A stretch of DNA of 64,000 bases, taken from Chloroflexota bacterium (GTDB lineage Bacteria; Chloroflexota; Anaerolineae; UBA1429). Shown one piece after another: positions 11,189 to 22,453 of the stretch. Positions within the stretch are counted from its first letter, which is position 1, and each line of letters begins with the position of its first letter. The translations under genes and the position numbers were made by a program. The DNA lies in assembly GCA_012841405.1 (NCBI GenBank), contig DUUT01000197.1, positions 6,400 through 70,399 of the forward strand, written 5' to 3'. The notes under the pieces were generated by a model. The model was not told the origin of the DNA. It searched no databases and saw only the letters and a list, made by a program, of their open reading frames with translations.

Positions 11189-12036
11189 TAGCCGCGGGTA
11201 AAGAGAGGCTCGAGCCCACTGGAACGCGCGGAAACCTGTTTCTGCTCCTCGCTGGTCAGCGTACAGAAGCGATCGGCGGCATCACACATCCACCATAGCA
11301 GCTCGGCGTGACTCGGGCTGACGGCGGCGGTAACGTCGTGAGACAGCGTCCAGTTCAGTGCCATCTGCGCCTCGGCGGGATCATCGACGGGGACGTACCA
11401 GCACTTGGGCCATGGGCGCTGCTCGCCCTCGCGAAGGGGACGCTTGGCGAGCGCCTTGAGCGCCAGGATACCGACGTGCGCCCGCTTGGCGGCGGCTAGG
11501 GCGCGGGCCCCAAAGCCGCCTTGGTACCATGCCACCCAGTTGAACGGAAAGAGCATGGTGTCGAAGGGAAAGCGCGCTAGCAGGGCGGCGGCTGCGTCCT
11601 CATCATGAGCGGAAAAACCGATAAAGCAGATGAGACCCTGCTCTTGCGCCTCGACAAGGGCCTCGATAGCGCCGCCGGGTGCCAGAATCTGCTCGACCTC
11701 GCCGAGGCTGGAGACAGCGTGGATCTGATAGAGGTCGAACCTGTCCGTGCGTAGGCGTTCGAGGGAGCGCCGCAGCTCTTCGCGCGCGCCCTGAGCCGTG
11801 CGCTCGCGCGTCTTGCACGCCAGGAACACGGACCGGCGATAGGGCGCCAGGGCGGGGCCAAGGCGTTCCTCGGCGTTACCGTAGGTGGGCGCGACGTCAA
11901 AGTAGTTGATGCCACGGTCGATGGCTTGGGCCACCAGGCGCGTGGCCTCATCGGGAGTGACGTCGTTGACCACCATGCCGCCAAAGCCGACGACGGAGAG
12001 GTTGACCCCAGTTCTGCCCAGACGATGAGTATCCAT
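11188..12036 (-). CDS. aldo/keto reductase
   Basis: MDTHRLGRTGVNLSVVGFGG...INYFDVAPTYGNAEERLG. ATG 12036 preceded by GGAGG. Confidence 0.85.
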   Translation of the reverse strand: MDTHRLGRTGVNLSVVGFGGMVVNDVTPDEATRLVAQAIDRGINYFDVAPTYGNAEERLGPALAPYRRSVFLACKTRERTAQGAREELRRSLERLRTDRFDLYQIHAVSSLGEVEQILAPGGAIEALVEAQEQGLICFIGFSAHDEDAAAALLARFPFDTMLFPFNWVAWYQGGFGARALAAAKRAHVGILALKALAKRPLREGEQRPWPKCWYVPVDDPAEAQMALNWTLSHDVTAAVSPSHAELLWWMCDAADRFCTLTSEEQKQVSARSSGLEPLFTRG

Positions 12037-12049
12037 GGCAGCCTCCAAT

Positions 12050-12093
12050 CAGCAAGCAAAGGGGCCGCCTCGGATGCAGCGATGAGGCGGCCC
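12050..12093 (-). terminator. intrinsic terminator after the PH-domain gene
   Basis: GGGCCGCCTC pairs with GAGGCGGCCC (10-bp stem), followed on the minus strand by CCUUUGCUUGCU. Confidence 0.6.
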
Positions 12094-12182
12094 AGTGAAC
12101 GCGTGCCGGTAGTATGGCGCCTGCGGGCGGTGTTGGCAAGCTTGCGAGGCGCAGATGCCTCCACGCATGCAGGGCAAGAGCA

Positions 12183-12710
12183 CTACATCTCCTCCTGAAA
12201 GCTGAAGCGGTGGCGCTGCCGTGCCGATAGCACGGCACGGCGGATGGTGTCGTGGACGCGCTCCGGGTGGCGGACGTTGTGCAGCGTGAGCTGTGGGTGC
12301 GAGGGGTCCGAGCTGCGCAGGCTGACGTCACCAATGCCCAGGATACGCTCGCCCAAGCTCTGACGGTAATCGAGGTCCTGCACGCGAACGAGCTCGACGC
12401 TCTCGTTCGCCTTGCTCAGCAGACCCGAGCGCACGCGTATGCGCTCCGTGGAGATGGTGTACTGCTCGACCATCGACAGAAAGGGGCGACCCGACCAGAG
12501 CACCCGCTCGTCGGGCAACTCGGTGGTGGTACCACCGTCGACGCCGGTCTCGGCGCTGGTTTCAGCGAGGGTCTCGACAATGCCCTCGGCTACAGCGTCG
12601 ACGAGCGCTTCCAGCTGATCGGGCGGTATGGATGACACCTCGATGTGACTCTGGGCGATGGACTGCCAGATACGGGCGGAGAGGCGCGATTTGAGTTCGT
12701 CAGCGGCCAT
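12183..12710 (-). CDS. bacterial PH-domain (bPH_2/YdbT-like) protein
   Basis: ERVLWSGRPFLSMVEQYTISTERIRVRSG...VELVRVQDLDYRQSLGERILGIGDV. ATG 12710 preceded by GAGGAGG. The upstream part of the 424-aa track ORF is not protein-like. Confidence 0.7.
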   Translation of the reverse strand: MAADELKSRLSARIWQSIAQSHIEVSSIPPDQLEALVDAVAEGIVETLAETSAETGVDGGTTTELPDERVLWSGRPFLSMVEQYTISTERIRVRSGLLSKANESVELVRVQDLDYRQSLGERILGIGDVSLRSSDPSHPQLTLHNVRHPERVHDTIRRAVLSARQRHRFSFQEEM

Positions 12711-12825
12711 GTGGCATGCCTCCTCGGGAGGGCGGTAGCCTTCGATAGGATGATACACTGCCTGCGCATGATGGGGCGCAGGATAGCGCCATCCGAGGGC
12801 GGCGTCAATGGAGCGCGCAGCAGCG

Positions 12826-12854
12826 TTGACCGCTGTGCGGCTGCGGGCTATACT
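12826..12854 (+). promoter_or_regulatory. sigma70-like promoter for the radical-SAM/gcvT unit
   Basis: TTGACC (12826-12831), 17-nt spacer, TATACT (12849-12854). Confidence 0.55.
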
Positions 12855-12881
12855 GGCCGTCACCGAGCCTGAGTAGGTGAC

Positions 12882-13802
12882 ATGATGCGCCATGACGTGC
12901 GTCGAGATTACGATATCGATCTGGGCGAGATCCTGGCGACGACTCCCCATCGCTGGCGCGACGCCTGGGATGTGCGCTCTCGCTTCCACCCTCCGACGAT
13001 CACCTTTGATCGCCCGACGGCGACGTTGCCCATCAGCGTGACTGGAGCGCGTTGCGCGCTCCAGTGTGCCCATTGCGGCGGCCACTATCTGCGCCACATG
13101 CGAACCCTCGACGATGCGGCGGCCCTCGGTGCCCTGAACGGCGCTACGAGCCTGCTCATCTCTGGCGGCTGCGATGCAGCAGGGCGCGTGCCGGTGATCG
13201 AGCACCTCCCGGTGCTGCGCCGCCTGGGCGCTGGTAGGCGGCTGAACTGGCATCTCGGGCTGATCGATGAGGAGACGATGCGGGCGGTGGCGCCGCTGGC
13301 TGATGTGGTCTCGTTCGACGTGGTCGGGGATGCCGCCACGGCCCGCGAGGTCTATGGGCTTGACGTGGATCTCGCCATCTACATGGCGACACTCCGCACG
13401 ATGCGGCGACATGCACGGGTGGTGCCGCACATTACTGTGGGATTGCGCGGCGGGCAACTGAGCGGCGAGATGGCGGCCGTGTCGGCGCTGGCCGCCGAGG
13501 GCGTCGATACGCTGGTCTTTATCGTGCTGATTCCGACAGAGGGCACGGCGTTTGCCGATCGTTGCCCTCCAAAGGTGGCGGACGTCGCCGACGTGTTACT
13601 CCAGGCACGGCTGGCCCTCCCACAGGCGAGACTGTTGCTCGGGTGCATGCGGCCACACGGCGTTTACCGCCAGGCATTGGATGAGGTCGCAGTGCGGGCT
13701 GGAATCAATGGGATCGTCAACCCCACGCGCGTTGCCGAGCGCGTGGCGGAGGCGTTGGGACTGGAAGCGACGTGGGGGAACGAATGCTGCAGCTTGGACT
13801 AG
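12882..13802 (+). CDS. radical SAM protein, biotin-synthase-related (LipS1/LipS2-type candidate)
   Basis: CALQCAHC (CX3CX2C) motif, GCMRPHG, C-terminal ECCSLD. Lies directly upstream of gcvT. Confidence 0.7.
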   Translation: MMRHDVRRDYDIDLGEILATTPHRWRDAWDVRSRFHPPTITFDRPTATLPISVTGARCALQCAHCGGHYLRHMRTLDDAAALGALNGATSLLISGGCDAAGRVPVIEHLPVLRRLGAGRRLNWHLGLIDEETMRAVAPLADVVSFDVVGDAATAREVYGLDVDLAIYMATLRTMRRHARVVPHITVGLRGGQLSGEMAAVSALAAEGVDTLVFIVLIPTEGTAFADRCPPKVADVADVLLQARLALPQARLLLGCMRPHGVYRQALDEVAVRAGINGIVNPTRVAERVAEALGLEATWGNECCSLD

Positions 13803-14833
13803 TAGGATGCGAGCCGGGCGGCGAGGCCGCGGCACCGGAAGGCTTGCGTGCAACGACGGCGCCCCGCGACGCCCAGTGGCGGGTGTCCTCGGGCACCGCG
13901 GCGGTGCTGGGGTTGCGCCCTCTGACCATGGATGCGGTCCCCACGACGGCGTACCTCATGCTGGGCGAGCGTTGCCTGCGCAACTGTGCCTTTTGCGCCC
14001 AGGCGCGCGACAGCCGCGCGCCGATCGAGGCGCTCTCGCGGGTGACGTGGCCGGCCTTTGGTGCCCAGCACGTGGCACGGGCGGTAGAGCAGGCGCATGC
14101 GACGGGGAGAATCGCCCGGGCGTGCTTCCAGGTGACGGCTGGCGCCGGCGCTCTCGATGAGGCCGCCCAGGCCGTCAGGACACTCGCCGCTGAGACGGGA
14201 GTGCCTATCTGCGTGTCGGCGGCGCCACGGAATGTGGACGACGTCGGAAAGCTGCTACGCCTGGGGGCCGAGCGCGTGACCATCGCGCTGGACGCCGCCA
14301 AGCCGGCGGTGTTTGCGCGCGTCAAAGGCGGCGCGTGGGAGCGCACGTGGAATCTGCTCATGATGTCTGCGGAACGGTATCCAGGCCGCATCGGAACACA
14401 CCTTATTGTGGGGCTCGGTGAAACCGAGGCGGATGTGGTGACCCTGATACAGCGTCTGAGCGACGTGGGCGTCACCATCGCGCTGTTTGCCTTTACGCCC
14501 GTCCCGGGGACGGCGATGGCATCCGCTGCACCGCCGCCGTTGAGTGTGTATCGTCGCGTGCAGGTAGCGCGTTGGCTCATCGTGCAGGGCGTTTCGCGTG
14601 TCGACGCGTTCTCCTTTGACAGCGATGGGCGGCTCACCTCTTATGGGTTGGATGCGACAGCGCTGCGTGCGACGTTGGTGAGCGGGGAAGCGTTTCGCAC
14701 GGCGGGCTGTCCTGGCTGCAATCGTCCCTACTACAATGAGCGGCCTGGCGGTGTCATGTACAACTATGCGCGACCGCTTTCCACCGCGGAGGCCGAGCGA
14801 GAGGTCGCGGCGCTGGTGGCATCGCTCGGCTGA
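13772..14833 (+). CDS. radical SAM protein, biotin-synthase-related (LipS1/LipS2-type candidate)
   Basis: CLRNCAFC (CX3CX2C) motif, IVGLGETE, C-terminal GCPGCNRPYYNE. Overlaps the preceding radical-SAM gene. Start uncertain (13772 or 13784). Confidence 0.7.
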   Translation: MGERMLQLGLVGCEPGGEAAAPEGLRATTAPRDAQWRVSSGTAAVLGLRPLTMDAVPTTAYLMLGERCLRNCAFCAQARDSRAPIEALSRVTWPAFGAQHVARAVEQAHATGRIARACFQVTAGAGALDEAAQAVRTLAAETGVPICVSAAPRNVDDVGKLLRLGAERVTIALDAAKPAVFARVKGGAWERTWNLLMMSAERYPGRIGTHLIVGLGETEADVVTLIQRLSDVGVTIALFAFTPVPGTAMASAAPPPLSVYRRVQVARWLIVQGVSRVDAFSFDSDGRLTSYGLDATALRATLVSGEAFRTAGCPGCNRPYYNERPGGVMYNYARPLSTAEAEREVAALVASLG

Positions 14834-14967
14834 AAGGGGAATCGCTCGCTCACGCCTGGCTCATGTCTCGCCGCCGCTTCTGGATGGAAGGCGGGGAAAC
14901 GGGGTGACCGCGGCAGGTCTGACGTGCTGGCGAGCATCGACACGAACAAGCAGCGAGGAGCGGTATC

Positions 14968-16065
14968 ATGGCAAAGCAAACGGCGTTGTACGATCGGCAC
15001 GTGGCCCTGGGCGGAAGGATGGTCGAGTTCGCCGGATGGATGCTGCCGGTGCAGTACCCCACCGGCCCCAAGGAGGAACACCTCCGCGTCCGCGAGGCGG
15101 CGGGCCTGTTCGATATCGATCACATGGGGCAGATCGTCGTTCACGGCGCGGATGCCGTTCCCTTTCTGCAGCACGTGCTAACGGCCGACGTCAGCAGCTT
15201 TGAGGTCGGCCGTGCGTACTATGGGTTGATGTGCTATGACGATGGCGGTGTGGTAGACGACACCTTTGTGTACCGGCTGCCCGATCGCTACTTTGTGGTG
15301 GTGAATGCGGCGAACAATGCCAAGGATACGCGTTGGCTGGACTATCATCGGGCCGGGTTTGACGTGACGGTGGAAAACGTGTCCGATGCGACCTATATGC
15401 TGGCGCTACAAGGACCCAAGGCGGAGGCCATCTTGAGTTCCCTCTGCCCAGCCGAGCTATCGACTATGCCGTACCATACGGTCATCGAGACGGAGGTTCT
15501 CGGTGTGCCGACCATTGTCGGGCGTACGGGGTACACGGGAGAGGATGGCTTTGAGCTGTTCTTCTCTGCGGAGAGGGCCGTTGATGTGTGGGACGGCATC
15601 ATGGATGCGGGGGCGCCCCATGGGCTGTTACCCATCGGCTTGGCGGCGCGCGACTCGCTGCGCTTTGAGCCCTGCTTTCCCCTCTACGGCCAAGAGATCT
15701 CGGCGATGGTAGACCCCATCGAGGCTGGCCTGGGGTGGGCGGTGGCCCTGTCCAAGGGGCCGTTCATCGGGCGGGAGGCGTTGCTCAAGACGCGGCTCGA
15801 GGGCGCGCCGAATCGGCTCGTGGGGCTGCGCATGACGCAGGGCGGCGTACCTCGCCATGGGTACGAGGTTGTGGTCGGTGACGTCGTCGTTGGCGAGGTG
15901 ACCACGGGGATGTATGCCCCAACGGCGGAGGCGTTCCTTGCCCTGGCGTACGTGGCGACGGAGTACAGCACGCCGGGCACCGAGGTGGGGATCATGATCC
16001 GCGACAGGGTGCGCTCGGCGGTCGTTGAAAAGATACCCTTCTATCGACCGACGTATCGACGTTAA
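14968..16065 (+). CDS. gcvT: aminomethyltransferase (glycine cleavage T protein)
   Basis: MAKQTALYDRHVALGGRMVEFAGWMLPVQY and full-length GcvT-like sequence. Confidence 0.95.
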   Translation: MAKQTALYDRHVALGGRMVEFAGWMLPVQYPTGPKEEHLRVREAAGLFDIDHMGQIVVHGADAVPFLQHVLTADVSSFEVGRAYYGLMCYDDGGVVDDTFVYRLPDRYFVVVNAANNAKDTRWLDYHRAGFDVTVENVSDATYMLALQGPKAEAILSSLCPAELSTMPYHTVIETEVLGVPTIVGRTGYTGEDGFELFFSAERAVDVWDGIMDAGAPHGLLPIGLAARDSLRFEPCFPLYGQEISAMVDPIEAGLGWAVALSKGPFIGREALLKTRLEGAPNRLVGLRMTQGGVPRHGYEVVVGDVVVGEVTTGMYAPTAEAFLALAYVATEYSTPGTEVGIMIRDRVRSAVVEKIPFYRPTYRR

Positions 16066-16318
16066 GCCGTACTGCGGGTGAACGGAGCTTGAGCGGAGCG
16101 CTCGGCATCAGGAGTCAAGCCACAACAGCGCGCCATCATCTTGTGCGATTGAACCACAACCCAGAGCACCGAGCATGAAGGATTGGTGCAGAGGCGTGGG
16201 TTCCGTTTCAGCGGAACCCGTGGCCGGCTGAGGTCAGGCCGGGCGGCGACGCCCCGCAACCAGTCCTTCGCGCTTCCCAAAGGGACACGGTGGCCACCCG
16301 GGATGGGGATGTGGGTGT

Positions 16319-18718
16319 ATGGTGCAAGAGAGACAGGCGCGTGGGCGCGGCGTCGGGCTGGTGCTTGTAGGCATGGTGCTGGTTGCTGCCCTCGGGGGAA
16401 GCTGGCTGGCCAAGAGGGGAGACGCTGAGGGGCAGACGCTCGGCCTCCCACCGGGAACGCGCGTCGGCTACCACCATGCGACGGGGCTGGTGCGGTTTCT
16501 CGGCGCGGCGGCGGGCGAGGCGTTGGCCGAGTATCCGAGTCTGTCATCGGCCGAAGGCCCCGAAGGGATCGCGGAAGCCTTTCTGAGCGTGTACGGCGGC
16601 CTCTTTGGCGTGGCGGACACGCAGCGGGACCTTGCCATTCAGTCCACAACCACGGCTCCGTCGGGGCGGACCGCGGTGCGCTACCAGCAGCACTACGACG
16701 GCGTGCCCATCGTGGCCGGCGAGTTGCTCGTGCAGGTTGATGCGTCGCAGCGAGTGTTGGCGGCCACCGGGGAGACCGCCAGAGACCTCACCCTCGATGT
16801 GACGCCGCGGCTGGCGTCCGACGAGGCGTGTCGGCGCGCGCTGGAGGATGTGGCACAGGAACGAGGCGCCGATCCCCAGGCGTTGACGTGCTCCGAGCCC
16901 GAGCTCTGGATCTATGATCCGGCGTTGCTCGATGCGCCGGGGCCGCGCCGCGCGCGCCTGGTGTGGCGTATGGAGATCCGCCACGCGGACGACCTGTCGG
17001 TGCGCGAGCTGGCACTCGTCGATGCCCACATGGGCGTGATGGCCCTGCGCTTTAGCATGGTCGATGAGGCCAAGCTGCGGAGGGTCCATGACAACGCGAA
17101 TGACGCCTCTCGCGGACTTCCGGGAACCCTGGTGCGCATCGAGGGGGGGCCGCCGGTAGGCGTGACCGATGCGGATGCCGCCTACGCGTTCCTGGGGGAC
17201 ACGTACGACCTGTACCATCGCCTGCACGGCCGCGATAGTTGGGATGGGGCGGGGGCGCCGATAGTGGTGACGACGCGATATTGCCCTCCCGGACAGGAGT
17301 GCCCCTACAGGAACGCGTTCTGGAACGGCACCCAGCTCGTGTTCGGCGAGGGGTATGCACGCGCTGACGATGTCGTGGCGCACGAGTACACCCATGCGGT
17401 GACCGAGCACACCTCACGCCTCTTCTACTACATGCAATCTGGAGCGATCAACGAAGCGTTCTCGGACATTTGGGGCGAATTCGTGGACCTCAGCAACGAC
17501 GGCGATGCGGGCAACGACGCCGAGCGATGGCTGGTCGGTGAGGATCTCACCAACGGCCCTGCCCGCAGCCTGAGTGACCCGCCGTCTTTCGCGTACCTGT
17601 TTCCCGATACGGGGCTCCAGCCGTATCCCGACCACATGGAGCACCCGGGCTACTACTGTGGTCATCTGGATAACGGCGGCGTACACCTGAACAGCGGGAT
17701 TGCGGCCAAGGTGGCCTATCTGCTGACAGATGGTGGCTCCTTCGGCGGGTATGACATCGGGCCGTTGGGCCTGGCCAAGACGGCAGCAGTGTTCTATGAG
17801 GTGCAGACCCAGTTGCTCACCTCCGGGGCGGGCTACGCCGATCTCCACGATGCGCTCATCCAGGCGGCCTACAACCTCGTCGTCGATGGCGTGTTGACGC
17901 CACCTGACGTGACGCACGTCGAGCGGGCGGTGGCGGCCGTGGGGATGGATCGACACCCCCCGGCGTGTGCCGTCGCTGTGGCGCCTCTGTGCACGGAGGG
18001 CTCTCCCCAGGACGTCTTTTATGATGACCTGGAGCGTCCCGAGGACGGCATCTGGACGGCGGTTACGCTCGAAGGGGTGTACAACAGCTTTTACTACCCC
18101 CAGAACCCGAACGACTTGGGCTTGGACGCCACGTATGCGCGCAGCGGAGTCACCAACATCTGGGGCTATGACCAGGAATATATCGGTGACTATGCCATGG
18201 TCATGATGCGCGACGTGGTGCTCCCTGCTGGGGCGTACCTGCGGTTCGAGCATGCGTTCGCTTTTGAAGAGGCGCCCAAGTGGGGGCAAGGGTTCGGCGC
18301 CGATGGAGGCGTCGTCGAGTACAGTATCGACGGGGGCGCCACCTGGCAGGATGCCGGCCCGTTGTTCACGCACAATGGCTATACGGGCCGATTGGTCGAA
18401 GGGTGGGGGAACCCCTTGGTCGGCAGGGAGGCCTTTGTCTCCGCAAGCAGGGGGTATATCACGAGTCGCCTGGACCTCCGCTCGCTGGCCGGTGAGCGGT
18501 TTCGCGTGCGCTTTCGCATTGGCACCGATGATGGCGGCAACGACTATGGGTGGTTCATCGATAACATTCACATCTACCACTGCCTTGACGCGCCGGGAGC
18601 GGCGACAGGCACGCCCACGTTGGTGGAGCCTACGCGCGCAACGCCCACGCGGGCAACGCCCACGGGTGTGCCGCATCCGTGGTGGTTCCCTGTGGCCATC
18701 AAGGAGTATGCGCGCTGA
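16319..18718 (+). CDS. secreted M4 (thermolysin-like) metallopeptidase with propeptide and C-terminal domain
   Basis: VVAHEYTHAV (HEXXH) and GAINEAFSDIWGE motifs. N-terminal signal/TM segment. Confidence 0.9.
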   Translation: MVQERQARGRGVGLVLVGMVLVAALGGSWLAKRGDAEGQTLGLPPGTRVGYHHATGLVRFLGAAAGEALAEYPSLSSAEGPEGIAEAFLSVYGGLFGVADTQRDLAIQSTTTAPSGRTAVRYQQHYDGVPIVAGELLVQVDASQRVLAATGETARDLTLDVTPRLASDEACRRALEDVAQERGADPQALTCSEPELWIYDPALLDAPGPRRARLVWRMEIRHADDLSVRELALVDAHMGVMALRFSMVDEAKLRRVHDNANDASRGLPGTLVRIEGGPPVGVTDADAAYAFLGDTYDLYHRLHGRDSWDGAGAPIVVTTRYCPPGQECPYRNAFWNGTQLVFGEGYARADDVVAHEYTHAVTEHTSRLFYYMQSGAINEAFSDIWGEFVDLSNDGDAGNDAERWLVGEDLTNGPARSLSDPPSFAYLFPDTGLQPYPDHMEHPGYYCGHLDNGGVHLNSGIAAKVAYLLTDGGSFGGYDIGPLGLAKTAAVFYEVQTQLLTSGAGYADLHDALIQAAYNLVVDGVLTPPDVTHVERAVAAVGMDRHPPACAVAVAPLCTEGSPQDVFYDDLERPEDGIWTAVTLEGVYNSFYYPQNPNDLGLDATYARSGVTNIWGYDQEYIGDYAMVMMRDVVLPAGAYLRFEHAFAFEEAPKWGQGFGADGGVVEYSIDGGATWQDAGPLFTHNGYTGRLVEGWGNPLVGREAFVSASRGYITSRLDLRSLAGERFRVRFRIGTDDGGNDYGWFIDNIHIYHCLDAPGAATGTPTLVEPTRATPTRATPTGVPHPWWFPVAIKEYAR

Positions 18719-18809
18719 GGGGACGGCCGTTGCTGGCCGCACGGCGATGCTGCCCAAGACGGGTCGCCCACTTCGGCCATTTTCGGGCTTGTGGGATTGC
18801 CTGCGGCCA

Positions 18810-18838
18810 TTGACACCTACCATCGTGGGGGCTATGCT
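18810..18838 (+). promoter_or_regulatory. sigma70-like promoter about 270 nt upstream of gcvH
   Basis: TTGACA (18810-18815), 17-nt spacer, TATGCT (18833-18838). Confidence 0.45.
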
Positions 18839-19109
18839 GGCAGTATGGGGGGCGTTCAGAGGCCCCACAGTGCGATGCTGTGCCCAGGACGCATTGCTGC
18901 CTGCGGTGAGGCGAGCCATGGGGCGCGCTGCTGCATCTGCGAGATGGGATGAGCGGAACCCGGAAAAGTGCGGGGCGCTGAGCAGTCCACGGGGTGGATT
19001 TGCGCCGGATGACGGATTGATGCAAGATAGGCACGACTTGTCAGGGGTCAGGTGATGTTGTCTTGATCGCATTCCAGCCCTAGCAAGAACATAACACGGA
19101 GGACCGCAC

Positions 19110-19517
19110 ATGCCATTCAAGGTTGACAGCAGATGCCGATACACCAAGACGCACGAATGGATTCGCGTTGAGGGGGATGAGGCGTACGTCGGGATCAGTG
19201 ACTATGCCCAGCAGCAGCTCAGCGACGTGGTCTTTGTCGAGATGCCCGAGGTCGGCGACAGCTTTGAGAAGGGCGAGGTCTTTGGCGTCGTCGAGTCAGT
19301 CAAGGCGGCGTCGGATGTCTACCTGCCGGTTGCCGGTGAGATCCTCGAGATCAATGAGGAGCTGGAGGACAGCCCCGACCTGGTGAACCGCGATCCGTAC
19401 GGCGATGGCTGGTTCGTCAAGTTTGTCATTGAGGATCACGAGGAGCTCCCTACGTTGATGGATGCGGACGCATATCAGCAGTTCGCGCAGCGTGCCGAGG
19501 AGGAGGGAGCGCACTAG
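19110..19517 (+). CDS. gcvH: glycine cleavage H protein
   Basis: Lipoyl-lysine context VVESVKAASDVYLPVAG. Confidence 0.95.
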   Translation: MPFKVDSRCRYTKTHEWIRVEGDEAYVGISDYAQQQLSDVVFVEMPEVGDSFEKGEVFGVVESVKAASDVYLPVAGEILEINEELEDSPDLVNRDPYGDGWFVKFVIEDHEELPTLMDADAYQQFAQRAEEEGAH

Positions 19518-20858
19518 ATGACACATGTGCCCCACACCGAAGACGAAAAGCGCTCCATGCTGGCACGCATCGGCGTGCGTAGCGTCGAGGATCTCTTTGG
19601 CGATGTGCCGACCGGGTACCGGTTCCCGTGGCTAGAGCTGCCCAGACCCCTCTCCGAACTCGAAATGATGGCCGAGTTGCGCGAGATCTCGGAAGGCAAT
19701 GCCGATCTCCAGCACACCGCCTGCTTCCTCGGCGCGGGGGCGTACCATCACTTCATACCCAGCGTTGTCGATCACGTCATCCGCCGATCCGAGTTCTATA
19801 CCGCCTATACGCCGTACCAGCCCGAGATCAGTCAGGGGACGCTACAGAGCGTCTTTGAGTACCAGTCCATGATCTGTGCGCTGACGGGCATGGAGGTGAG
19901 CAACGCGTCGCACTATGATGGGGCGACGGCCCTGGCCGAGGCCGTGATCATGGCGATCAATGTGGCACGAGGCAGGCGGACCAAGGTGGTGATGGCACCA
20001 TCGGTGCACCCCGAGTATCGTGCCACGGCGCGGACGTACACGCAGGGTATGAGCGTGGAGGTGGTGGGGGACGATCGCCTGGATAATGATCTGCAGGCAA
20101 TGGTAGAGATGGTGGACGATCGCACGGCTTGCCTGGTGCTCCAGACCCCCGACTTTTTCGGACGGATCGTGGACCTGGCAGGGGTGGCGGATGCCGTGCA
20201 TGCCAAAGGCGCTTTGCTGGCGGTCGTGTGCAACCCCATTGCGCTGGGCTTGCTCAAGCCGCCGGGAGCGTTTGGCGCCGACATCGTGTTGGGCGAGGGG
20301 CAACCGCTGGGTATCCCCCTGAGCTATGGAGGGCCGTACCTGGGCTTCTTTGCCTGTCGAGAGGAGTACGTCCGACGGATGGCGGGGCGCCTGGTGGGTG
20401 AGACGATCGACGCTGACGGTAGGCGTGGCTATGTGCTCACCCTGTCGACGCGCGAGCAACACATTCGTCGCGAGCGCGCCACATCCAACATCTGCACGAA
20501 TCAGGGCCTCAACGTGCTCGCGGCGGCGGCGTATCTGGCGGCGATGGGGCGGTGTGGTCTGCCACAGGTGGCGAGGCTGTGTTACCATCGCGCCCACTAC
20601 GCTGCCGATGCGATCTCGGTGCTTGACCAGTATACGGTAGACATGGCGCAGCCCTTCTTCCACGAGTTTGTCGTGCACTGCCCTCGGCCGGTGGAAGAGA
20701 TCAATGCCATCCTGCTGGAGGAGCATGGCATCATCGGCGGCTATGACCTGTCCAAGGCGTATCCCGAGTTGGTCAACCAGATGCTGGTCTGCGTCACCGA
20801 GATGAACTCGGTGGACGAGATCGACGCCCTGGTGCAGGCGCTGGAGGAATCGGCCTGA
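19518..20858 (+). CDS. gcvPA: glycine dehydrogenase (decarboxylating) subunit 1
   Basis: Full-length GcvPA-like sequence that abuts gcvH. Confidence 0.95.
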   Translation: MTHVPHTEDEKRSMLARIGVRSVEDLFGDVPTGYRFPWLELPRPLSELEMMAELREISEGNADLQHTACFLGAGAYHHFIPSVVDHVIRRSEFYTAYTPYQPEISQGTLQSVFEYQSMICALTGMEVSNASHYDGATALAEAVIMAINVARGRRTKVVMAPSVHPEYRATARTYTQGMSVEVVGDDRLDNDLQAMVEMVDDRTACLVLQTPDFFGRIVDLAGVADAVHAKGALLAVVCNPIALGLLKPPGAFGADIVLGEGQPLGIPLSYGGPYLGFFACREEYVRRMAGRLVGETIDADGRRGYVLTLSTREQHIRRERATSNICTNQGLNVLAAAAYLAAMGRCGLPQVARLCYHRAHYAADAISVLDQYTVDMAQPFFHEFVVHCPRPVEEINAILLEEHGIIGGYDLSKAYPELVNQMLVCVTEMNSVDEIDALVQALEESA

Positions 20859-22453
20859 TGAACGCAGAGCACAACGACGCCAAGCGTGGTGTGGCGCTGC
20901 CGATGCAGCGCCGCGTAGAGCCTGTTATCTATGAGCTCGGGGCGCCGGGACGTTGCGCGGCGACGCTGCCACCGCTAGACGTGCCCGAGGCCGACCTGCC
21001 CCCGGCCGAGCTCTTGCGCGACGACCTCGACCTGCCCGAGGTCACCGAAGGCGATCTGATGCGGCACTATGTGCGGCTGTCGCAGAAGAACTGGGGCGTT
21101 GATGTGGGTTTCTACCCACTCGGCTCCTGTACGATGAAGTACAACCCCAAGGTCAACGAGGACGCGGTACGCTTGCCGGGCTTTGCGGAGACGCATCCGT
21201 ACCAGCCCGAAGACTCGGTGCAGGGCAATCTCCAGCTGATGTACGAGCTGCAGGAGTACCTCAAGGAGATAGGTGGGTTCGCGGCGGTCAGTCTACAGCC
21301 GGCGGCGGGGGCCCACGGCGAGCTGACGGGCGTCCTCATGATGCGTGCCTACCACGCAGCAAGGGGTGATGCGGAGCGCAAGCGTGTGCTGATTCCCGAC
21401 TCGGCCCACGGGACAAACCCCGCAAGCACCGCCATGGCAGGCTTTGAGGCGGTCGAGGTGGCCTCCGATGCACGGGGCAATGTCGACCTGGACGATCTGT
21501 GCGCCAAGCTCGATGAGCGCGTTGTCGGCATGATGCTGACGAATCCCAACACGCTGGGGCTGTTCGACGAGAACGTTCTCGAGGTCTCGCGTCTCGTACA
21601 CGAGGCCGGTGGGCTGATGTATGGCGATGGCGCCAACCTGAACGCTCTCCTCGGAATCGCCAAGCCGGGCGAGCTCGGGTTCGACGTCATGCACTATAAC
21701 CTGCACAAGACATTCTCGACGCCTCACGGCGGTGGCGGTCCGGGATCCGGCCCGGTGGGCGTGAGCGAGGCGTTGGTAGAGTTTCTCCCCGGCCCGATCG
21801 TGACGGCCGAGCCATGCATGATCGACACGATCACAGGGAAGCGACTGCCGGAGGAGGCCGCCAACGCTTGGGCGGTGGCTGACAGTGACTGGGATGATGC
21901 CTGCCGAGAGGGGCTGTGGTACCGGCTCGAAATGCCGGCGCGGTCGATTGGCCGCGTCAAGGCGTTCTACGGTCACTTTGGGATTATGGTGCGCGCCTAT
22001 ACCTACATCCGCATGCTGGGGGCGCGTGGGCTGCGCGAGGTCAGCGAGGCGGCCGTCCTGAACGCCAACTATTTGCAGGCGATCCTAAAGGACGTGTACC
22101 CGCTGCCCTATGAGCGGACGTGCATGCACGAGTTCGTGGTGCAAGGCAAGAATGAAGGCGCTCCCGACGTGCGGGCTCTCGACATCGCCAAGCGCCTCAT
22201 CGATTACGGCGTGCACCCGCCGACGAACTACTTTCCGCTGATCGTGCCCGAGGCACTGATGATCGAGCCGACAGAGACGGAGAGCAAGGATACCCTCGAC
22301 TATTTCGCCGATGTGATGCAGCGTATCGCCGAGGAGGCGCGCACAGAGCCCGAGACGCTGCACGAGGCGCCGGTCAATGCGCCTGTGCGTCGGCTGGACG
22401 AGGTACGGGCGGCGCGCAATCCGGTGTTGCGCTGGAGGCGGCCAGCGCGCTGA
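20858..22453 (+). CDS. gcvPB: glycine dehydrogenase (decarboxylating) subunit 2
   Basis: HYNLHKTFSTPHGGGGPG (PLP-lysine region). The ATG overlaps the gcvPA stop. Confidence 0.95.
   Translation: MNAEHNDAKRGVALPMQRRVEPVIYELGAPGRCAATLPPLDVPEADLPPAELLRDDLDLPEVTEGDLMRHYVRLSQKNWGVDVGFYPLGSCTMKYNPKVNEDAVRLPGFAETHPYQPEDSVQGNLQLMYELQEYLKEIGGFAAVSLQPAAGAHGELTGVLMMRAYHAARGDAERKRVLIPDSAHGTNPASTAMAGFEAVEVASDARGNVDLDDLCAKLDERVVGMMLTNPNTLGLFDENVLEVSRLVHEAGGLMYGDGANLNALLGIAKPGELGFDVMHYNLHKTFSTPHGGGGPGSGPVGVSEALVEFLPGPIVTAEPCMIDTITGKRLPEEAANAWAVADSDWDDACREGLWYRLEMPARSIGRVKAFYGHFGIMVRAYTYIRMLGARGLREVSEAAVLNANYLQAILKDVYPLPYERTCMHEFVVQGKNEGAPDVRALDIAKRLIDYGVHPPTNYFPLIVPEALMIEPTETESKDTLDYFADVMQRIAEEARTEPETLHEAPVNAPVRRLDEVRAARNPVLRWRRPAR

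Follow-up and report, generated by a model that had tools for sequence, protein, structure and literature searches.

Two overlapping radical-SAM genes, designated lipS1 and lipS2 on the grounds given below, stand at the head of a glycine-cleavage locus in the 64,000-nucleotide stretch of DNA that we analysed (the window). The window belongs to the MAG of an uncultured Anaerolineae bacterium (96% complete, 7.5% contamination, 238 contigs). The pair is followed after 134 nt by gcvT and, further downstream, by gcvH, gcvPA and gcvPB (Table 1). The first-pass annotation had placed the pair directly upstream of gcvT, as was found here, and close to gcvH; the latter is in the same locus but is close only in a loose sense, since an M4 metalloprotease gene intervenes. 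In most relatives, no metalloprotease insertion separates gcvT from gcvH. On the minus strand, an open reading frame overlapping lipS1 (12183..13457) was rejected as a full-length gene; the actual protein encoded there has 175 aa and a bacterial PH domain, with its start at 12710.

Table 1. Features of the lipS1-lipS2-gcv locus, in window coordinates
Feature	Position	Strand	Length	Evidence or detail
Candidate sigma-70-like promoter	12826..12854	+		TTGACC (12826-12831), 17-nt spacer, TATACT (12849-12854); 10/12 consensus matches
lipS1	12882..13802	+	306 aa	NF053742 LipS1 equivalog
lipS1-lipS2 overlap (most likely extent)	13784..13802	+	19 nt	Conserved -19 start in relatives
lipS2	13784..14833	+	349 aa from ATG 13784 (353 aa from GTG 13772)	NF053743 LipS2 equivalog
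gcvT (aminomethyltransferase)	14968..16065	+		TIGR00528 374 bits; PF01571, PF08669
M4 metalloprotease gene	16319..18718			Between gcvT and gcvH
gcvH	19110..19517	+		TIGR00527 159.6 bits; lipoyl-acceptor motif VESVKA
gcvPA	19518-20858	+		NF001696 615.7 bits
gcvPB	20858-22453	+		NF003346 737.5 bits

The promoter-like site described in the first-pass annotation was located upstream of lipS1. A same-genus relative carries the same two hexamers at the same spacing within flanks that have diverged, and two promoter-like sites were observed in the region against 0.3 expected. This suggests that the site acts as a promoter. No terminator-like site was found in the lipS2-gcvT spacer, and neither a glycine riboswitch nor any other known RNA was detected in this spacer or in positions 12000-20000 (Rfam, E up to 0.1). 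Because the spacer is short and has no predicted terminator, lipS1, lipS2 and gcvT are probably co-transcribed from the candidate promoter.

The extent of the lipS1-lipS2 overlap depends on the lipS2 start codon and is 31 nt from GTG 13772 or 19 nt from ATG 13784. To compare the junction among relatives, lipS2 was read in tblastn-anchored frames at 35 loci, the junction values of L060 and L078 being ignored on account of their long upstream open frames. Most of the 35 relatives share an in-frame start located 19 nt ahead of where the lipS1 stop codon ends, and in L020, L022, L023, L034 and L038 lipS2 has no other possible start, so that the true overlap is most likely 19 nt. The genes therefore do overlap as had been claimed, but probably not by the roughly 30 nt proposed. 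Almost every adjacent lipS1-lipS2 pair that was examined keeps an overlapping junction, and an overlap of this kind implies that translation of the two genes would be coupled.

Identity of the two radical-SAM proteins

To assign the two proteins to families, we compared them with the curated NCBIfam equivalog models, each of which has its own cut-off. The product of the first gene matched NF053742 at 263.9 bits (cut-off 230), residues 42-303 covering positions 1-268 of the 268-position model, and that of the second gene matched NF053743 at 360.3 bits (cut-off 270), residues 36-332 covering positions 1-291 of 292. These full-length matches bear out the earlier proposal of a bacterial LipS1/LipS2 pair and also assign the first gene to LipS1 and the second to LipS2, a point that the first-pass annotation had left undecided. 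The sequence motifs listed there were all present: a CX3CX2C radical-SAM motif, CALQCAHC (C58/C62/C65), and a C-terminal ECCSLD in LipS1, and the motif CLRNCAFC (CX3CX2C; C68/C72/C75), GLGETE and GCPGCNRPYYNE in LipS2, whose residues are numbered here from GTG 13772. The canonical lipoyl synthase model TIGR00510 (LipA, cut-off 310 bits) gave 36.8 bits for LipS2 and no match for LipS1, and neither protein contains a CX4CX5C or RSSY motif.

In Thermococcus kodakarensis, the auxiliary-cluster ligands were assigned by Neti et al. 2022 (PMC9585515) as C230, C276, C277 and H159 in LipS1, one Cys lying ~46 residues before a C-terminal Cys-Cys, and as C85, C276 and C279 in LipS2, a Cys ~40 residues past the motif plus a C-terminal CxxC. 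In the Anaerolineae proteins, the three motif cysteines of LipS1 together with C255, C302, C303 and H183 were invariant in 13/13 sequences, and the three motif cysteines of LipS2 together with C118, C313, C316 and H210 were conserved in all 35 of the relatives' sequences. The spacing of LipS1 C255, C302/C303 and H183 agrees with that of the T. kodakarensis ligands at a consistent offset of 24-26 residues, and LipS2 C118 and C313xxC316 are spaced in agreement with C85 and C276xxC279. On this correspondence, for which the basis was residue spacing, invariance and the curated models and not an alignment with TK2109 and TK2248 themselves, C255, C302, C303 and H183 are putative auxiliary-cluster ligands of LipS1, and C118, C313 and C316 those of LipS2.

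The two proteins could instead be BioB paralogues, or other BioB/HydE-like radical-SAM enzymes that have nothing to do with lipoate, their adjacency to gcvT being a coincidence. Pfam assigns both of them the generic Radical_SAM domain only, LipS2 weakly matches the bioB model TIGR00433 (53 bits) and carries GLGETE, and the AlphaFold2 model of LipS1 (pLDDT 90.8) has HydE, BioB and PylB as its nearest solved folds. Searched by sequence, solved structures gave no detectable match for LipS1 and only weak LipA and BioB matches for LipS2. Moreover, no bioB and no other BioB candidate was found in the organism's own genome. However, the score of 53 bits is far below the TIGR00433 cut-off of 225 and LipS1 did not match this model at all, whereas both proteins exceeded their LipS1 and LipS2 equivalog cut-offs. 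Best homology to BioB, which the first-pass annotation had said would speak against its proposal, was thus not what we observed. No dethiobiotin-pathway genes lie nearby, dozens of genomes keep the pair linked to gcvT or gcvH, and LipS1/LipS2 and LipA are complementary in their distribution over 41 genomes. Collectively, the bioB scores, the equivalog matches, the distribution and the linkage largely refute a BioB-paralogue identity, which we regard as highly improbable.

Lipoate genes in the genome and in its relatives

Whether the genome lacks canonical lipA had been put forward as a check on the proposal, and none was found in the 96% complete MAG. LplA-type ligases and LipM were also absent from this genome. 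Its sole gene of the LplA/LipB fold (LplA-B_cat), located elsewhere on contig 11, scores as the transferase LipB (NF010925, 192 bits against a cut-off of 155; TIGR00214, 147.7 against 83.55). ACP is present. The gcvH of the gcv operon is the only GCV_H-family gene, with no LbpA-like second paralogue, and a dedicated LbpA system was rejected on this basis. GcvH is presumed to be the main substrate of LipS1/LipS2. A single E2 gene was found; it lies on a contig of 2 kb, whose end truncates it.

The distribution of the synthases was examined in 41 genomes, comprising this one and 40 relatives. LipS1 was over cut-off in 29 of them and LipS2 in 30, the two proteins co-occurring, and LipA in 11. LipS1/LipS2 and LipA occurred together only in two class-level relatives (G032 and G035), to which may be added one family genome (G013) in which a contig begins with a partial LipA. 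No LipA was over cut-off in the 24 other family genomes, and no canonical lipA was found in 22 of these 24; the lipA-free genomes include three single-contig ones (G020-G022) that are 94-98% complete. LipB was the only LplA-B_cat protein in 23/24 family genomes, which have about one E2 each. The order lipS1-lipS2-gcvT is kept in ~20/23 family genomes and in 21/80 named Anaerolineae loci, and one locus (L035) has the order lipS1-lipS2-lipB. The presence of lipA together with a lack of co-occurrence with gcvH across genomes had been named as evidence that would count against the pair; neither was seen, and in many genomes the pair is found linked to gcv genes.

A canonical LipA might nevertheless be hidden in the 4% of the genome missing from the assembly, leaving LipS1/LipS2 as an accessory system like that of proteobacterial sulfur oxidisers. 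The fragmented state of the assembly and the LipA genes of G032, G035 and G013 are compatible with this, as is the report of LipA in 27/62 LipS1/LipS2-bearing Chloroflexota by Tanabe et al. (PMC10332631). It is nevertheless very unlikely given that LipA is missing above cut-off from the 24 other family genomes, the single-contig ones included, and that there is no second, LbpA-like GcvH for an accessory system to serve. Together, these results indicate that the overlapping gene pair very probably encodes the two-protein lipoyl synthase LipS1/LipS2, and that this is the only lipoyl synthase of the organism.

In the route that we propose, LipB would transfer the octanoyl group of octanoyl-ACP to GcvH and to the one lipoyl domain of E2, in each case at the acceptor lysine. 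The radical-SAM cluster of LipS2 would abstract a C8 hydrogen and attach sulfur from the auxiliary [4Fe-4S] cluster, and LipS1 would repeat the sulfur insertion at C6 of the 8-mercaptooctanoyl intermediate to give the lipoyl group, following the order (C8 by LipS2, then C6 by LipS1) of Neti et al. 2022 (PMC9585515). Given the probable co-transcription with gcvT, the enzymes that make the cofactor would be produced together with the glycine cleavage system, their main client. That LipB is the octanoyl donor, and E2 a second substrate, we infer from the gene content.

LipS1/LipS2 could also be genuine but act on octanoyl-GcvH alone, in which case E2 would either stay unlipoylated or obtain its lipoyl group through scavenging or a relay from GcvH. 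In keeping with this, lipS1 and lipS2 are joined to the gcv operon rather than to E2 genes, Bacillus-type pathways require GcvH as the first acceptor (PMC10332631), and the LipS1/LipS2 route of sulfur oxidisers serves specific substrates (bioRxiv 10.64898/2026.10.01.755906). However, a LipL-type amidotransferase is required for a relay and an LplA-type ligase for scavenging, both of which have the LplA-B_cat fold, and the one gene of this fold in the genome is LipB. LipB has been described as an all-purpose transferase (PMC10332631), and in the cited work it is the ligase or transferase step, not LipS1/LipS2, that sets discrimination. We therefore consider a restriction to GcvH unlikely, though less so than a hidden LipA or a BioB-type identity. 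That LipS1/LipS2 have displaced LipA as the sole housekeeping synthase throughout this Anaerolineae family, fed by LipB from octanoyl-ACP and serving both GcvH and E2, is a wider reading that we hold with moderate confidence.

Relation to known lipoate pathways

The closest characterised counterparts are T. kodakarensis LipS1 (TK2109) and LipS2 (TK2248) (Jin et al. 2020; Neti et al. 2022, PMC9585515), which are likewise two separate BioB-like radical-SAM proteins with one CX3CX2C motif each. In both systems, the second cluster site comprises one Cys together with a C-terminal CC and a His (LipS1) or with a C-terminal CxxC (LipS2). They also share the lack of the LipA-type CX4CX5C/RSSY motif, the lack of LipA in the genome and the genomic association with H protein. 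In contrast, the host here is a bacterium (Anaerolineae, Chloroflexota), lipS1 and lipS2 adjoin and overlap each other whereas those of T. kodakarensis are unlinked (loci 2109 and 2248), and the octanoyl group is presumably provided by LipB from octanoyl-ACP rather than by the LplA/LplB ligase from free octanoate.

Among bacteria, the same two synthase families occur in the sLpl(AB)-LipS1/LipS2(-LipT) pathway of sulfur oxidisers (Tanabe et al. 2023, PMC10332631). That pathway is an addition to LipB/LipA dedicated to LbpA, whereas the Anaerolineae genome has no sLpl(AB) ligase, LbpA paralogue or LipA, and LipS1/LipS2 apparently form its sole housekeeping synthase for GcvH and E2. The gene orders also differ, being lipS1-slpl(AB)-lipT-lipS2 there and lipS1-lipS2-gcvT here. 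A de novo route of LipM with LipS1/LipS2, inferred for some Synergistota, Thermotogota, Schekmanbacteria and Bacillota (PMC10332631), is more similar in that an octanoyltransferase feeds LipS1/LipS2 in the absence of LipA and that the Bacillota lipS1/lipS2 genes likewise lie within glycine-cleavage operons, but the transferase here exceeds the LipB cut-offs of TIGR00214 and NF010925 and does not score as LipM. The LipB/LipA pathway of E. coli begins with the same LipB/octanoyl-ACP step and likewise ends in lipoylated GcvH and E2. It differs in using one LipA in place of two enzymes, in its auxiliary-cluster ligands and in the order of sulfur insertion, which is reversed for LipS1/LipS2 (C8, then C6; PMC9585515).

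We found no demonstration in the literature of LipB acting upstream of LipS1/LipS2; the published partners named in PMC10332631 are Lpl ligases and LipM, and no row of the phylum table in Tanabe et al. 2023 combines LipB with LipS1/LipS2. The enzyme pair itself is not new, contrary to what the first-pass annotation implied: bacterial LipS1/LipS2, those of Chloroflexota included, were published in 2023 (PMC10332631), and the association of the family with GcvH is likewise in the literature. The 2023 paper lists Chloroflexota among the LipS1/LipS2-bearing phyla with 62 genomes in GTDB R207, and models of the NCBI pipeline already name both proteins. Since the pair has already been described and catalogued, we regard its recognition here as a sound annotation, not a discovery.

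The annotation matters for how the lineage is read. Older pipelines labelled such genes biotin synthases and Pfam calls them merely radical SAM; under these labels, the lineage would seem incapable of making lipoate despite its glycine cleavage system and 2-oxoacid dehydrogenase E2. The family-wide presence of LipB and LipS1/LipS2 without LipA offers a natural test of whether LipS1/LipS2 are active on LipB-octanoylated GcvH and E2 and can replace LipA in general. If the wider reading given above is true, the family would use a hybrid LipB-LipS2-LipS1 route, in which LipS1/LipS2 accept acceptors octanoylated by LipB and replace LipA as a module.

Identity of the two radical-SAM proteins

The first-pass annotation had described an overlapping radical-SAM gene pair and read it as a candidate bacterial LipS1/LipS2, leaving open which gene was which. 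Both open reading frames, their CX3CX2C motifs (one per protein) and the other reported motifs were all present in the translations. Pfam recognised only the generic Radical_SAM domain in both proteins. Using the curated NCBIfam equivalog models, the upstream protein matched LipS1 (NF053742) at 263.9 bits (cut-off 230) and the downstream protein matched LipS2 (NF053743) at 360.3 bits (cut-off 270), each over the entire model. The upstream gene is therefore lipS1 and the downstream gene lipS2, which settles the assignment. Biotin synthase and LipA were rejected as identities: LipS2 scored 53 bits (52.7 in the genome scan) against bioB (cut-off 225) and 36.8 bits against lipA (cut-off 310), and LipS1 matched neither. 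The LipA motifs CX4CX5C and RSSY were absent from both translations.

In Thermococcus kodakarensis LipS1, the radical-SAM cluster ligands are C27/C31/C34 and the auxiliary ligands C230, C276 and C277 plus the conserved H159; in LipS2 they are C39/C43/C46 and C85, C276 and C279 (Neti et al., PMC9585515). Across 13 sequences drawn from several families of the class, residues C58/C62/C65, H183, C255 and C302/C303 of the window LipS1 did not vary, and their positions exceed those of the T. kodakarensis ligands by a steady 24-31 residues. C68/C72/C75, C118 and C313/C316 of LipS2 were kept in 35/35 relatives. The predicted correspondence to the T. kodakarensis ligands rests on the curated models, spacing and invariance rather than on direct alignment with TK2109 and TK2248. 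A sequence search found no solved structure for either family. The nearest solved folds to a confident AlphaFold2 model of LipS1 (pLDDT 90.8) were HydE, BioB and PylB, in agreement with the family's past annotation as biotin synthase (PMC9585515). Collectively, these results confirm the motif observation and support the locus as a LipS1/LipS2 lipoyl synthase pair.

Organisation of the locus

Features in and around the lipS1-lipS2 locus (window coordinates)
Feature	Position	Strand	Details
Bacterial PH-domain (bPH_2) protein gene	12186-12710	-	175 aa; start 12710; divergent from lipS1
Promoter-like site of PH-domain gene	12780-12808	-	TTGACG-17 nt-TATCCT
Promoter-like site upstream of lipS1	12826..12854		TTGACC, 17 nt, TATACT
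lipS1 ORF	12882..13802	+ (as lipS2)	306 aa; CALQCAHC; C-terminus ECCSLD
lipS2 ORF	13772..14833	+ (as lipS1)	353 aa; CLRNCAFC; GLGETE and GCPGCNRPYYNE
M4 (thermolysin-like) metalloprotease gene	16319-18718		800 aa; between gcvT and gcvH

The overlap between lipS1 and lipS2 is 31 nt if lipS2 starts at GTG 13772 and 19 nt if it starts at ATG 13784. Among 35 adjacent lipS1-lipS2 pairs of relatives, most have a lipS2 start codon that precedes the end of the lipS1 stop by 19 nt, and in five loci this is the sole possible start because the frame opens there or there is no alternative start codon. On the strength of this recurrence we assigned ATG 13784 as the start of lipS2. An overlap, previously put at about 30 nt, is real and conserved, with 19 nt as its most likely size. 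Overlap of this kind suggests that the two genes are translationally coupled.

The promoter proposed for the pair was located in the 170-nt intergenic region common to lipS1 and the divergent bPH_2 gene. A scan of the lipS1 upstream region revealed two promoter-like sites compared to 0.3 expected from shuffles. In L017, the closest named relative (an Anaerolineae MAG of the same genus; LipS1 80% identical), the two hexamers and their 17-nt spacing are unchanged, whereas the rest of the intergenic DNA has diverged; this modest phylogenetic footprint favours a real promoter. As first described, the pair lies directly upstream of gcvT, which starts 134 nt past the end of lipS2. Scans between lipS2 and gcvT turned up neither a terminator-like site nor any Rfam family, the glycine riboswitch included, and lipS1, lipS2 and gcvT are presumably co-transcribed. 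The metalloprotease gene, gcvH, gcvPA and gcvPB follow gcvT.

Distribution and gene order in relatives

We surveyed 41 genomes: our own, 24 of the same family and 16 from other families in the class. LipS1, LipS2 and LipA were above cut-off in 29, 30 and 11 of these, respectively. G032 and G035 carry both systems; the LipA of G013 is partial. The LipS pair is present in 23/24 family genomes, which include three single-contig genomes, and a full LipA in none. In 23/24 the sole LplA-B_cat protein is LipB, with about one E2 per genome. The family genome G003 (2.1 Mb, 90% complete) has LipB and one E2 but no LipS1, LipS2, LipA or gcvT. One missing locus would account for the absence of both the LipS pair and gcvT; either the assembly lacks the lipS-gcv locus, or the lineage lost glycine cleavage together with lipoyl synthesis.

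The window's own assembly (4.0 Mb, 238 contigs, 96% complete, 7.5% contamination) was checked for a canonical lipA, as the first-pass annotation had proposed. None was found, the sole weak match being lipS2 itself. The genome encodes one GcvH-family protein (acceptor motif VESVKA), one E2 catalytic domain on a short contig, an ACP and a single protein with the LplA/LipB catalytic fold. This protein scores as LipB (NF010925, 192 bits vs 155; TIGR00214, 147.7 bits vs 83.55), and ligases and LipM are absent. BioB was likewise absent from this genome, the best match again being lipS2. A ~186-aa biotinyl/lipoyl-domain protein on contig 20 is probably BCCP, although biotin synthase was not found; judged by gene content, the organism may be a biotin auxotroph.

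Of the 23 family genomes with the LipS pair, about 20 have lipS1, lipS2 and gcvT side by side on one strand. Among 80 named loci, nearly all from uncultured Anaerolineae MAGs, this order occurs in 21, usually with gcvH-gcvPA directly after. In eight loci (L037, L040, L045, L062, L085, L089, L090, L094), gcvH-gcvPA directly follows lipS1, and the fetched flank contains neither lipS2 nor gcvT; these genomes have a split pair in which only LipS1 is linked to the H protein. In a Bacillota MAG (L087), gcvT-gcvH-gcvPA lies upstream of lipS1-lipS2. While gcvT, gcvH and gcvPA are contiguous in most relatives, a protease gene separates gcvT and gcvH in the window and, among the 80 loci, only in L017 and L028. 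One Anaerolineae locus (L035:1698-4264, DAOTVS010000004.1) has lipB directly downstream of lipS1-lipS2, its product 64% identical to our LipB; this was the only physical LipB-LipS linkage seen in the 80 loci. Elsewhere in the class, lipS2 of several families (G026, G032, G035) adjoins a non-LipB LplA-fold gene, the arrangement described by Tanabe et al. for Chloroflexota. In most other families (G025-G039), the gcvT match falls inside frames of 1060-1313 aa, covering ~340 model positions, which suggests GcvT-domain fusions instead of stand-alone GcvT.

A proposed lipoyl route

T. kodakarensis is the organism in which LipS1/LipS2 were first found (Jin et al. 2020) and then characterised (PMC9585515); their function has been proven in bacteria and their distribution surveyed across GTDB (PMC10332631). 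Given these published families and survey, the locus is clearly a member of known families. The survey lists 62 Chloroflexota genomes with both lipS genes, of which 41 have Lpl ligases, 8 have LipM without Lpl and 13 are not accounted for; it has no LipB row (PMC10332631). A full-text search for LipS1 with LipB in Chloroflexota returned PMC10332631 alone.

Mechanistically, a hybrid de novo route of LipB, LipS2 and LipS1 is most likely, with the LipS1/LipS2 chemistry taken from PMC9585515 and PMC13692748. With octanoyl-ACP as the donor, LipB would octanoylate GcvH and the E2 lipoyl domain, LipS2 would thiolate C8 and LipS1, acting after LipS2, would thiolate C6. In each synthase, the radical-SAM cluster would serve for hydrogen abstraction and the auxiliary [4Fe-4S] cluster would be sacrificed as the sulfur source. 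According to a 2026 preprint, in sLpl-LipS1/S2 bacteria the new pathway serves LbpA proteins and the canonical one is kept alongside it. The window locus falls outside the definition of the sLpl(AB)/LbpA pathway because its genome has neither a ligase nor LbpA. The inferred de novo route of LipM + LipS1/S2 is similar to it, except that here LipB takes LipM's place and LipS1/S2 is the sole synthase. Of modest interest is that, without LipA, a route combining LipB with LipS1/LipS2 would extend across the family.
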